Below are positions 59,483-62,869 of a stretch of DNA of 64,000 nucleotides, piece after piece. The DNA lies in NCBI GenBank assembly GCA_016872775.1, contig VGZA01000026.1:11821-75820 (forward strand), given 5' to 3'. The position numbers were made by a program, and so were the translations under genes. Source of the DNA: Planctomycetota bacterium. GTDB lineage: Bacteria; Planctomycetota; Planctomycetia; Pirellulales; Pirellulaceae. The notes beneath the pieces were generated by a model. It searched no databases. It was not told the DNA's origin and saw only the letters and a list, made by a program, of their open reading frames with translations. Within the stretch, counting starts at the first letter, position 1. Every line of letters begins with the position of its first letter.

Positions 59483-62400
59483 GTGGATCTAGACCGCTAT
59501 CTTGCGCCCTTTCGCCCGCCGCGAACCAATCTGGTCGACGCGCTACGGTACTGGTCCGAAGTTCAATCCGACGCGCCGGCCTTCTATTTCACCGATCTCG
59601 AAGGCGAAGAACTCCGCTGGACTTACCGCGAACTGGATCAAATGGCTCGGGCAATCGCCGCACGGCTGATCGATCAGAAGCTGCAAGGCGAACGGGCATT
59701 GATGCTCTTCCCTCCCGGTCTGGAGTTCGTCGCCGCCTTTTTCGGATGCCTGTATGCGGGTGTGATCGCCGTACCGGCCTATCCGCCTCGACGCAATCGG
59801 AACATGACGCGCATCCAGGCGATCGCCGACGACTGCCAAGCCAAGGTCGTATTGACGGTCCGGGCCGTCACCGAACGGATGAACGACGGCTTGTTGGAGG
59901 AAACGCCAGCCCTGAGCGATCTGCAATGGGTTGCCGTCGACGAAGTGTCCCTGGCTCGCGCTGACGATTGGCGACCCTCAAACATTCGCGGCCAACAATT
60001 GGCGCTGCTGCAGTACACCTCCGGTTCCACCGGAACGCCCAAGGGAGTGATGCTCACCCACGATAACGTGATGAGCAATGTGCTGGTGATCATGAGTTGC
60101 TTTGAACCGGATCGTAACACGGTCGGATTGGCCTGGCTGCCAACCTACCACGACATGGGGCTGGTGGGTGGCGTCCTGGAACCGATGTTCGTCGGCCGGC
60201 CCAACGTGTTGATGTCGCCGATGACCTTTCTGCAGAAACCGGTGCGTTGGTTGCGGGGGATCAGCAAGTATCGAGTCACGATGAGCGGCGGCCCCAATTT
60301 TGCTTACGACCTGTGCGTGCAGCGGGTATCCGACGAGGAAATGGCGGGGCTCGATTTGAGCTCGTGGGACCTGGCCTTCAACGGTGCGGAACCGATCCGC
60401 CCGGGAACCCTCGAACGATTCACGCGAAAGTTTGCGGAGGTGGGATTCCGCCCAGAGGCGTTTTTCCCGTGTTACGGCATGGCGGAAACAACATTGATCG
60501 TCACGGGCAGCCATAAGCGGGACCTGCCCGTGCTCTTGACTGTGGATGGGCGGGCGCTGGACGAGCATCGCGTCGTGCCGATCCGATCGAGTCATGAATC
60601 GGCTCGCATCATCGTTGGCTGCGGACACGTGCTTACGGGCGAAGACGTTCGGATCGTCGATCCGCAGTCGCTCGACCCGCTTCCCGACTATCAGGTCGGA
60701 GAGATCTGGATCAAGAGTCCCAGCGTCGCCCAAGGCTACTGGAACAAACCGGACATCAGCGAGGCGACGTTCGGGGCCGTGCTTTCGAACGGCACGGGGC
60801 CCTTTCTGCGCTCCGGTGACCTGGGATTCATTAAGGACGGGGAGTTGTTCGTCACCGGGCGACTGAAGGACCTGATCATCATTCGCGGCGTCAACCGTTA
60901 CCCGCAGGACATCGAATTGACGGTGGAACGATCGAGCGAAAGGTTGCAGTCGGGAGCGGTCGGAGCGTTTGCGGTCGACATGCACGGGCGGGAGCGACTG
61001 ATCGTGGTCGCGGAAGTGGAGCGATCGCGGCACAAGGCCTGGGACGACGTCATCCGGTTGATCCGCACCAATGTGGCGGCCGAACATGAACTGCCTCCCG
61101 ACGGAGTGGTGCTTGTCCGCTTCGGTTCGATTCCGAAAACGTCGAGCGGCAAGATACAGCGTCACGCCTGCCGCGACGATTTCATCTCCGGCCAGCTTTC
61201 GATCGTCTCCGAATGGTACGTTTGGGCGACCGAAGAGGACCGTGCGACCGTGTCCGAAACTTCGGCGGCGGCTGTGGCTTCGGCGAGCGACCCGGCGTTG
61301 ACGGCGGGTTTCGACCTCGCGACAACAGTCGCGATCGATCCGGTCGTGGCCGCGACGGTGCTCGACCATGTGCGGGCGGTCGCCAAGGAACGAGCGAAAA
61401 CACTGCATCTCGATTCCAACATCGTGCTCGACCTGGGGCTCGACTCGCTCGAGCGCGTGCAGATCGCCAACAGCCTGGAAGAGACATTTGGCGGGCGATT
61501 TCCGGAGTCGGTGCTGGCCGAAATCGAGACCTGCCGGGAAGTCGCTGCGGCGATCCAGAAGCATATCGGCTTGGTGCCCAAAAAAGACCGCAAGCTGGCC
61601 GGGCCCGGTTCCAACGGCCGGCCGATCGGAGAGGTCCCTCCGGAGTATTACGATTTCGCAAGATTGCCGGAATATGTGCGATTGAAACAAACCATGTTTC
61701 AAATGATGTCGAGTGGACTTCCGAACCCCTATTTTTCCGTGCACGAGCGGGTGGCCAGCGATACGACCCAGATCGCGGGCCGGGAACTTATCAGTTTTGC
61801 AACCTACAACTACCTGGGAATGTCTGGCGATCCGGAGATTTCCGAGGCGGCCAAGCGCGCGATCGATCGTTTCGGCACCAGCGTATCCGCCAGCCGGCTC
61901 GTGTCCGGGGAAAAAACGGTCCATGTCGAACTGGAGTCGGCGATCGCGGAGTTTCTGGGTGTCGAAGCGTCGATTGTCTACGTCGGCGGCCACGCCACCA
62001 ACGAAACCACGATCGGACATCTGTTTGGACCTGGCGACTTGATTCTGCACGATGCTCTGGCGCACAACAGCATCATCCAAGGCGCGATCCTTTCCGGTGC
62101 GCGGAGGCGTCCGTTTCCGCATAACGAATGGCGGGAACTCGACACGATCCTGAAAGAGGTTCGTACGGAATACCGCCGAGTGCTGGTCGCCATTGAAGGG
62201 GTTTACAGCATGGACGGCGACTACCCCGAACTTCCGGCATTCGTCGAGGTCAAGGAACGCCACAAGGCGTTGATCCTCGTCGACGAGGCCCATTCCCTGG
62301 GGACGATGGGGACGCGGGGCCATGGAATTGCCGAACATTTCGGGCTGGCGCCCCGGCGCGTCGACCTGTGGATGGGGACGATGAGTAAATCGCTGGGAAG

Positions 62401-62869
62401 CTGCGGCGGCTACATTGCGGGCCGACGCGAACTGATCGAACTGCTGAAATATACCGCTCCGGGCTTTGTCTACAGCGTCGGTATTCCGCCCAGCAACGCG
62501 GCGGCGGCCCTGGCGGCCTTGCGAGCGATCGAGGCCCAACCCGATCGCGTGGACAGATTGCAGGCCAATTCACGCCTGTTCCTGGAACTCGCCCAGGCGC
62601 GCGGTCTCAACACAGGATTCAGCGAAAACACCCCGGTGATTCCTGTGATCACGGGCAATTCACTACACGCGCTGATGCTCTCGAGGGCCCTCTACCAGCG
62701 CGGCATCAACGTCCAACCGATTCTGTATCCAGCCGTCGAAGAGGAGAAGGCCCGCCTGCGGTTCTTTATCACGTCGCGTCATACCGAGGCCCAGATCCGC
62801 GAAACGGTCGACGCCGTTGCGGAGGAACTGGCCCGGATCGACGAGCGGTACCTGACGCCGATGCGCTGA
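59483..62869 (+). CDS. Tridomain fatty-acyl-AMP ligase (FAAL) - acyl carrier protein - α-oxoamine synthase (class II PLP aminotransferase, BioF/KBL/SPT-like).
   Basis: The 1128-aa ORF has the FAAL core [25 protein letters not shown]...[20 protein letters not shown]. The ACP domain carries the phosphopantetheine site [15 protein letters not shown]. The AOS domain reads [17 protein letters not shown]...[15 protein letters not shown]...[16 protein letters not shown] with the PLP lysine. Confidence 0.85.

Follow-up and report, generated by a model that had tools for sequence, protein, structure and literature searches.

A one-polypeptide FAAL-ACP-α-oxoamine synthase conserved in Pirellulales is a candidate self-loading long-chain-base synthase

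We analysed a 64,000-nucleotide stretch of the genome of a Planctomycetota bacterium of the family Pirellulaceae (GenBank assembly GCA_016872775.1, contig VGZA01000026.1, positions 11,821 to 75,820 of the forward strand), referred to below as the window. [quoted passage not shown] We propose, with a probability of roughly 60%, that the gene encodes a self-contained, coenzyme A (CoA)-independent and self-loading synthase of long-chain bases, i.e., of sphingoid bases of the 3-ketosphinganine type. The domain-level mechanism taken by itself, with its three steps proceeding in cis, is in our judgement highly probable. The proposal is based on the domain content and catalytic residues of the protein, on its conservation across Pirellulales and on the gene clusters in which its relatives from other lineages are found.

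Gene structure and conservation

The initial annotation of this locus had recognized a ligase, a carrier and an AOS domain, in that order, in one polypeptide. Pfam analysis bore this out: an intact open reading frame (ORF) of 1128 codons carries four domains, namely AMP-binding, AMP-dom_DIP2-like, PP-binding and Aminotran_1_2. The gene, its domains and its principal catalytic residues are located as follows.

59483..62869, + strand: complete FAAL-ACP-AOS gene, 1128 aa, GTG start, ORF uninterrupted
59469..59473, + strand: Shine-Dalgarno sequence GGAGG, 9 nt upstream of the GTG start, read from the sequence
59525..61252, + strand: fatty acyl-AMP ligase domain, residues 15-590, with an AMP-binding body (24-420) and a C-terminal subdomain (463-575)
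60524..60622, + strand: FAAL-specific insertion, approximately residues 348-380, about 30 aa, following the YGMAE motif, placed by alignment
61355..61555, + strand: acyl carrier (PP-binding) domain, residues 625-691, Pfam E-value 2e-10, with Ser655 as the phosphopantetheine site
61679..62839, + strand: PLP-dependent α-oxoamine synthase domain, residues 733-1119, from the alignment to the structure 3a2b, the motif table and the tree
62063-62065, + strand: His861 of the AOS domain (PLP-stacking)
62282-62284, + strand: Asp934 of the AOS domain (to the pyridine N)
62291-62293, + strand: His937 of the AOS domain (to O3')
62387-62389, + strand: Lys969 of the AOS domain (Schiff base)
62759-62761, + strand: Arg1093 of the AOS domain (carboxylate-binding)

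The five AOS residues were assigned by alignment to the structure of the Sphingobacterium multivorum serine palmitoyltransferase (SPT; 3a2b). The GTG start at 59483 is supported by homologues that align from residue 1. More than 120 protein clusters matched the 1128-aa protein over its full length at 64-100% identity, each with the identical four Pfam domains, and their named sources were Pirellulaceae, Pirellulales or Planctomycetota. In an alignment of 13 family members the mean column identity was 70%, and every catalytic motif residue was invariant. The full-length clusters and the invariant motifs establish 59483..62869 as a real gene rather than a chance ORF. The synthase gene is a conserved single-copy feature of Pirellulales (64-79% identity), located in a syntenic block of housekeeping genes. 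An Rfam scan around it returned no regulatory RNA, a selenocysteine tRNA (tRNA-Sec) being the sole match, and promoter and terminator scans at the gene remained at background level.

Ligase, carrier and synthase domains

The ligase domain was identified as a FAAL by several independent comparisons. The Pfam AMP-binding match covered residues 24-420 (E-value 7.7e-72) and was followed by the AMP-dom_DIP2-like C-terminal subdomain at residues 463-575. The core motifs of the ANL superfamily (starting at Q177; Y331-GMAET; G445-DLG; K557) were all present and invariant in the family. The FAAL models of NCBIfam scored 390-459 bits on this domain versus 136 bits for the FadD model, and no subfamily-specific cut-off of the FAAL models was reached. 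The best matches in the Protein Data Bank were all FAALs, including 7r7e (613 bits), the loading domain of an olefin synthase, 3kxw, and FadD32, FadD23 and FadD28. The domain also aligned with AasR of Escherichia coli BL21 at 35% identity over 555 aa (E-value 2e-81). The insertion of approximately 30 residues was shared with BL21 AasR and with the Nostoc and Legionella homologues of the window protein, and was gapped in E. coli FadD in the alignment. In FAALs this insertion is associated with the rejection of CoA.

The serine of the LGLDSLER motif, assigned as the carrier site in the initial annotation, was found at residue 655 (nucleotides 61445-61447), and D654, S655 and L656 were invariant in the family. 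The carrier domain was 28% identical to AcpR of BL21. Likewise, the GTMSKSLG motif contained the expected PLP lysine, Lys969. The Aminotran_1_2 match extended over residues 768-1111 (E-value 3e-47), and the AOS domain was 32% identical to BL21 Spt (E-value 1e-55). Loss of the catalytic His/Asp/Lys triad had been named at the outset as the observation that would speak against an active synthase; on alignment these residues were intact, and His861, Asp934, His937, Lys969 and Arg1093 were all invariant in the family. The earlier suggestion of in-cis, CoA-free logic is likewise supported at the level of the predicted protein by the FAAL-specific insertion, the matches to FAAL models and structures and the intact AOS residues.

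The residue equivalent to Thr83 of 5-aminolevulinate synthase (ALAS), which presumably excludes amino-acid side chains, is Ser804 in the window protein. Serine likewise occupies this position in SPT and in 8-amino-7-oxononanoate synthase (AONS), whereas Val or Thr is found in the glycine-using enzymes Kbl, ThAOS and ALAS (HemA). Ser804 therefore points to an amino acid with a side chain, probably serine or alanine rather than glycine. A second, divergent fused paralogue in some Blastopirellula genomes, e.g., Blastopirellula sp. JB062 (locus L031, 695-4027), has Val at the same position, which may indicate the use of glycine by that paralogue. The AOS clade of the window protein has a signature of its own, consisting of SASR..SGE and PGF(V/L)YSVG (PGFVYSVG in the window), with Glu810 in place of the Thr, Ser or Tyr of all other families. 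The position that marks SulA (a cysteate acyl-ACP transferase), located 30 residues past the Schiff-base lysine, is Val999 in the window AOS and Ala274 in the S. multivorum SPT in an ungapped alignment; an active-site lysine (Lys281) marks SulA, and alanine is found in SPT (PMC9304779).

Placement of the AOS domain

No curated AOS family cut-off of NCBIfam was reached by the window protein. The highest AOS-family score was obtained with the bioF model TIGR00858 (340 bits, cut-off 426), and the scores were 309 bits for the Kbl model (cut-off 460), 245 bits for the ALAS model (cut-off 339) and 157 bits for the CqsA/LqsA model NF005526 (cut-off 428). The phylogeny proposed along with the initial annotation was built as a neighbour-joining tree of 36 domains and 387 columns with 200 bootstraps and few references, from which CqsA, SulA and the S. 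paucimobilis SPT were left out. In this tree the window AOS stood apart from SPT, Kbl, BioF and ALAS. It belonged to a clade with 97% bootstrap support, together with RkpG/WcbT-type enzymes, AOS domains at the termini of polyketide synthases (PKSs) and most other FAAL-ACP-AOS proteins. The bootstraps within this clade were poor (8-40%). Kbl, ThAOS, HemA and BioF lay further out, BioF being the most distant reference. Consistently, the window AOS was 50-62% identical to members of its own clade, versus 30-38% to Kbl, HemA, Spt and BioF. We regard the domain as no orthologue of SPT, BioF, Kbl, ALAS, CqsA or SulA and assign it, from these sequence relationships, to the RkpG/WcbT-type lineage.

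Not all of the fused proteins were found in the 97% clade. The SPT clade (85%) contained two of them, those of Limnothrix (L028) and P0237, and a third group, including the second Blastopirellula paralogue, formed a 96% clade. Because fused proteins fall in the 97%, 85% and 96% clades, the FAAL-ACP-AOS fusion must have come about in no fewer than three lineages of AOS.

A translated search of plasmid records recovered relatives of the window AOS at 50-59% identity, closer than any curated AOS family, beside type I PKS genes. They included a Pseudomonas plasmid AOS located among capsule genes (59%) and a Caballeronia WcbT-like AOS in a WcbR/WcbT-like capsule cluster (57%). RkpG of Sinorhizobium meliloti, encoded on pSymB, was 49.6% identical, and the order of genes there (a giant PKS-like gene, the AOS gene, a short-chain dehydrogenase/reductase (SDR) gene and a capsule gene) is that of the rkp-1 region (rkpA, rkpG, rkpH). 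A PKS of Planktothrix agardhii p3 ends in an AOS domain of the same clade (54%). A plasmid of Bacillus cereus FM1 (L090, 5403-14234) encodes a same-clade ACP-AOS protein (49%) surrounded by genes for a glycosyltransferase, a methyltransferase, an ABC transporter and a phosphopantetheinyl transferase.

Relatives outside Pirellulales and their gene clusters

The search of 50%-identity representatives yielded dozens of full-length proteins of 1070-1150 aa that matched in a single stretch at 38-57% identity, as well as longer forms. In a scan of species representatives, full-length homologues were found in many Pirellulales genera, Phycisphaerales, Pyrinomonadaceae and other Acidobacteriota, Nostoc, Limnothrix and Legionella resiliens. 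The known bacterial ceramide pathway consists of Spt, the bacterial ceramide synthase bCerS and the reductase CerR (PMC11334938), and bCerS homologues, in one locus together with a CerR homologue, were encoded near some of these relatives.

In an acidobacterial locus (L030; OY761556.1, 8767-14541), genes for a CerR-type NAD epimerase, a FAAL of 573 aa and an ACP-AOS protein of 513 aa are accompanied by a convergent gene for a GNAT acyltransferase. The epimerase was 28% identical to BL21 CerR (E-value 1e-38) and the GNAT protein 36% identical to BL21 YghO/bCerS (E-value 1e-86). The AOS domain of this locus was 54% identical to that of the window and belonged to the same clade. The arrangement reads as a semi-fused intermediate that naturally connects the split system of proteobacteria with the full fusion. 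Legionella resiliens (L025; NZ_JAJTND010000004.1, approximately 5295-19220), with an AOS of the same clade, encodes bCerS, the fused protein, a PAP2 protein, a CDP-alcohol phosphatidyltransferase and a fatty-acid hydroxylase, along with an SDR, a desaturase with a Lipid_DES sphingolipid delta-4-desaturase domain, two GT4 glycosyltransferases and one GT2 glycosyltransferase. This appears to be a complete sphingolipid cluster, and its predicted product is a glycosylated and/or phosphorylated unsaturated ceramide. Within Planctomycetota, a member of Phycisphaerales (L023) has a fused gene whose product shared 49% identity with the window protein overall and 62% within the AOS domain, with a bCerS homologue encoded 3 kb downstream in the same orientation. 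When an acidobacterial bCerS was used as the query for planctomycetal bCerS, only close, Acidobacteria-like matches were found among those listed.

A keto-reductase was a recurrent partner. The gene next to the fused gene encodes an SDR 41% identical to RkpH both in Nostoc, where the AOS is of the same clade, and in Limnothrix, where it is of the SPT clade, and one representative, P0134, is a FAAL-ACP-AOS protein of 1454 aa with a CerR-like NAD epimerase at its C-terminus. In Limnothrix (L028, 9949-15985), the fused protein is followed by the RkpH-like SDR and a second FAAL. Fused proteins beyond the clade of the window protein included P0237, P0162 and P0177, and extended architectures were represented by P0121, P0134 and P0140. 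Among the extended forms were a FAAL-ACP-AOS-FAAL-ACP-class III aminotransferase of 2624 aa and a FAAL-luciferase-like monooxygenase-ACP-AOS of 1436 aa.

Genomic surroundings in Pirellulales

The window is an ordinary stretch of planctomycete chromosome that encodes GMP synthase, an ABC-F protein, ProC, SelB, SelA, IMPDH, SurE, SRP54 and TrmD. Upstream of the synthase gene are ksgA, riboflavin synthase (ribE), enolase and tRNA-Sec. The block that runs from SurE to enolase, ribE, ksgA, the synthase, a small ORF and a convergent BBP7-like barrel gene was syntenic in relatives at 66-68% identity. In more distant Pirellulales the synthase gene had unrelated neighbours of the housekeeping kind, e.g., argB/argF, mobA/moeA, RNase H/recG and an acyl-CoA dehydrogenase. 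Clustering of the neighbouring ORFs from 16 loci showed two recurrent genes, that of the barrel (10 loci) and the small ORF (11 loci, by profile search), and no others. The absence of flanking reductase or tailoring genes apart from a 60-aa ORF, which had been noted for the window at first inspection, holds there and across the Pirellulales loci. The two recurrent neighbours are located as follows.

63013..63195, + strand: conserved 60-aa ORF, TTG start, GGAGG ribosome-binding site, invariant ESPLRHRL motif
63319..64000, - strand: BBP7-like outer-membrane beta-barrel gene, cut by the window end, weak Pfam BBP7 match, convergent

The small-ORF family comprises 514 clusters of 59-60 aa, all of Pirellulales type where named and including Psta_2993, and corresponds to no Pfam family. 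In every case a BBP7-like barrel gene converges on the small ORF. In Pirellula staleyi, Psta_2993 is found beside a barrel gene and SelA, far from the synthase, and the barrel encoded there was 34% identical to that of the window. Since the P. staleyi pair is located away from the synthase, the small ORF and the barrel gene form a unit of their own. The small ORF was accordingly rejected as a partner subunit of the synthase, although it adjoins the synthase gene in 11 loci. A functional partnership with the barrel is also unsupported, as it stays with the small ORF in P. staleyi and is replaced in distant Pirellulales. The barrel gene of the window has a Gly-rich loop (GGGGGGGG).

Further features of the window were recorded. 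The tRNA-Sec gene (58491-58590, + strand) is located between ksgA and the synthase gene, and the genes for SelB and SelA lie 14-17 kb upstream (42334-44250 and 44295-45689); with tRNA-Sec, SelA and SelB present, this planctomycete therefore has the full selenocysteine machinery. A very-long-chain-type acyl-CoA dehydrogenase of approximately 600 aa with an ACAD9/ACADV C-terminal domain is encoded at 21964-23775 (+ strand). In another locus (L005, 8043-9848, - strand) a dehydrogenase of the ACAD9/ACADV type directly adjoins the synthase, and in a third (L018, 7011-8258, - strand) a shorter acyl-CoA dehydrogenase of 415 aa, with no match to the ACAD9/ACADV C-terminal domain, is near it. The proximity of acyl-CoA dehydrogenases to the synthase may be a coincidence. 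The window also contains a gene of the DnaA family (509 aa, 24281-25810, - strand) and a gene for a DacZ_P/DAC (DacZ-type) diadenylate cyclase (497 aa, 50921-52414, + strand).

Comparison with known systems

A close parallel is the experimentally proven tripartite AasR-AcpR-SPT system of Rhodobacteria, represented by Caulobacter (CC_1165/1163/1162) and E. coli BL21 (ECD_02851/02853/02854). The BL21 sphingolipid cluster comprises yghO, a gene annotated in RefSeq as 'fatty acyl-AMP ligase' (AasR), an epimerase gene, an ACP gene and spt. AasR acylates only its dedicated AcpR, neither CoA nor the housekeeping ACP, and the SPT, a PLP-dependent AOS that joins acyl-ACP to serine, prefers acyl-AcpR (Padilla-Gomez et al., PMC9386255). 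In the window protein these three functions follow one another in the same logical order, and its domains are homologous to the BL21 parts (35%, 28% and 32% identity, as given above). In contrast, AasR, AcpR and SPT are individual proteins whose genes cluster with those of CerR and bCerS, whereas the window protein is one polypeptide without such neighbours, and the SPTs of that system belong to a different AOS clade.

In terms of the AOS domain alone, the RkpG/RkpH/RkpA and WcbT/WcbR systems are closer, their AOS enzymes being members of the 97% clade (50-59% identity). As predicted for the window AOS, RkpG and WcbT act on a carrier-bound acyl chain, and SDRs of the RkpH type accompany relatives of the window gene. 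In these systems, however, a giant type I PKS builds the acyl chain, and in the window protein the FAAL domain takes the place of this PKS. The genes are also embedded in capsule export clusters, such as the window does not contain, and their product has been described only as a lipophilic carrier or anchor. The type I PKS of Planktothrix agardhii p3 with its terminal AOS offers a further parallel, since the AOS there releases an ACP-tethered chain. Compared with such PKS-AOS proteins, the window protein, which has no ketosynthase, acyltransferase or ketoreductase module, is a minimal loading-carrier-release form. Other PKS-type systems with off-loading by an AOS are SxtA, RedL and the Fum8 type.

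The fused architecture itself was catalogued in 2013, when a survey listed it as A-CP-AOS for Blastopirellula marina A3ZWL3 and for Microscilla marina, with the substrate and product marked '?' (PMC3870968). A3ZWL3 shares its architecture and order with the window protein and almost certainly belongs to the same family; the survey provided neither a clade assignment nor a genomic context or function for it. In BioW-BioF, a natural fusion of pimeloyl-CoA synthetase and AONS (PMC9544090), an acid-activating enzyme is likewise joined to an AOS. It differs from the window protein in that BioW is no FAAL, has no carrier domain and works via CoA on a C7 diacid in biotin synthesis. CqsA/LqsA and SulA have the AOS fold and chemistry in common with the window protein, but the CqsA model scored far under its cut-off and the SulA lysine is replaced by Val999. 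The Nostoc punctiforme protein Npun_R3567 has been reported not to be an SPT and was grouped with cyanobacterial BioF homologues (PMC8895605); it was set aside here as a protein of uncertain architecture. The FAAL reviews consulted make no mention of PLP or AOS partners.

Discussion

The mechanism that we propose would begin with the adenylation of a free long-chain fatty acid by the FAAL domain. The acyl group would then pass not to CoA, because of the FAAL insertion, but to the phosphopantetheine arm on the protein's own Ser655, forming a thioester. An L-amino acid bound to the PLP, which is released from Lys969, would be deprotonated and attack the acyl thioester in a decarboxylative Claisen condensation, and the intermediate would decarboxylate and leave as a long-chain α-aminoketone. 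The AOS domain presumably dimerises, like all AOS enzymes. We favour these three steps in cis because the domains match AasR, AcpR and Spt, i.e., parts of a system in which AasR serves AcpR only and the SPT prefers acyl-AcpR. How long the acyl chain is, in which direction it is transferred, which amino acid is used and what becomes of the product are predictions. Serine would be the most likely amino acid, giving 3-ketosphinganine, followed by alanine, giving the 1-deoxy analogue. In Pirellulales the enzyme would catalyse the committed first step towards a sphingoid base or an envelope lipid of the ceramide type, and the reductase and N-acyltransferase, if they exist, would be encoded elsewhere in the genome.

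The assignment to sphingoid-base synthesis is favoured by the genomic associations observed in the relatives, since members of the same clade occupy the position of Spt in sphingolipid clusters of three phyla and a keto-reductase recurs as a partner, both as a neighbouring SDR in Nostoc and Limnothrix and as the epimerase fused in P0134. Several observations weigh against this assignment. The window AOS falls outside the separate 85% clade of the proven SPTs (E. coli BL21 and S. multivorum), and the SPT equivalog models were missed by the window protein, with scores of 313 bits for NF047600 (cut-off 640), 279 bits for NF047599 (cut-off 500) and 236 bits for NF047603 (cut-off 670). The closest plasmid relatives (50-59%) are of the RkpG/WcbT type and come from the capsule clusters, the product of which has been described only as a lipophilic carrier or anchor. 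The active-site signature specific to the clade (Glu810, PGFVYSVG) could be the mark of another amino-acid substrate. Moreover, neither the 64-kb window nor the 10 kb on either side of the gene in approximately 25 Pirellulales loci contained a candidate for CerR, bCerS or an SDR, a search that did not extend to whole genomes. The searchable literature, which is incomplete, yielded no biochemical characterisation of a FAAL-ACP-AOS protein or of RkpG/WcbT, and no report of sphingolipids from cultured Pirellulales. On a bolder reading, Pirellulales, which are not known to make sphingolipids, would form the sphingoid-type base constitutively by the one self-loading enzyme without the usual partners bCerS and CerR. 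The product would then be a free long-chain aminoketone or amino-alcohol with a role in the envelope or in signalling, or a base made with some amino acid besides serine, and it is with the latter that the clade-specific signature would agree. We consider this possible, with odds of perhaps one in four.

The resemblance to RkpG and WcbT raises the question of whether the same chemistry serves another cellular use, i.e., whether the amino-ketone or amino-alcohol lipid is an anchor or carrier of a surface polysaccharide. The nearest annotated AOS relatives (RkpG, the Caballeronia WcbT-like enzyme and that of the Pseudomonas plasmid) are all encoded beside PKS and capsule export genes, and the SDRs beside the cyanobacterial fused genes are homologues of RkpH. 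However, no PKS, capsule-export or glycosyltransferase genes were found near the synthase in the window or in any Pirellulales locus examined, and in three phyla the same clade is tied to bCerS rather than to capsule genes. With bootstraps of 8-40% within the clade, the proximity to RkpG is not specific, and we find a role of this kind unlikely. The initial annotation had suggested a sphingoid-like or a CAI-1-like product. The first of these is clearly favoured, as it agrees with the ceramide and sphingolipid clusters of the same-clade relatives, and the second fared poorly against the CqsA/LqsA model (157 bits versus 428). A signal or specialised metabolite analogous to CAI-1 or LAI-1 would be a free α-aminoketone or α-hydroxyketone, perhaps built from an unusual amino acid, that does not enter further lipid assembly. 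The Pirellulales loci have no tailoring gene near the synthase, the active-site signature leaves the amino acid open, and surveys of the antiSMASH type count FAAL-containing loci as biosynthetic clusters (PMC12820801). No cognate sensor gene is found nearby, however, and with its single copy, order-wide conservation (64-79%) and place in a housekeeping block the gene looks more like a part of core physiology than like the source of a variable signal or natural product. We regard such a use as improbable.

An assignment to biotin synthesis, in which pimelate would be loaded on the carrier and condensed with alanine to 8-amino-7-oxononanoate as a carrier-dependent analogue of BioW-BioF, has several arguments in its favour. 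The JGI family name is '8-amino-7-oxononanoate synthase/acyl carrier protein', TIGR00858 gave the top AOS-family score, the gene is ubiquitous in the order and located among cofactor and housekeeping genes with riboflavin synthase nearby, and natural BioW-BioF fusions exist. However, the bioF score of 340 bits falls short of the cut-off (426 bits), E. coli BioF shares only 30% identity and is the most distant reference of the tree, and the ligase domain is nearest to long-chain FAALs (7r7e, FadD32 and AasR). Relatives of the same clade are found in sphingolipid or capsule clusters. Ubiquity combined with linkage to biotin genes had been listed initially as evidence against a lipid synthase; the ubiquity in Pirellulales was confirmed, and neither the window nor any other locus examined contained bioA, bioB or bioD. 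We regard a biotin enzyme as very improbable.

As the architecture was already catalogued in 2013, the fused form is an uncharacterised variant on a familiar principle and introduces no new enzymatic principle. If our proposal of a sphingoid-base synthase is correct, the gene would allow a single protein to turn a free fatty acid into the precursor of a sphingoid base independently of CoA, and would open a simple, testable way to a lipid that has gone unrecognised in a whole bacterial order. A Black Sea study counted 138 Planctomycetota metagenome-assembled genomes with 'Spt-like' proteins (PMC11334938). The gene would back the claim, made from metagenomes, that sphingolipids are potentially produced by many Planctomycetota, and would tie the long-uncharacterised capsule-lipid enzymes RkpG and WcbT to sphingoid chemistry. 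A compact three-domain enzyme that converts fatty and amino acids to α-aminoketones could also appeal as a biocatalyst. Should the product be a free base or derive from an amino acid other than serine, the finding would mean a new class of lipids for planctomycetes and a function for the whole RkpG/WcbT clade of AOS enzymes.

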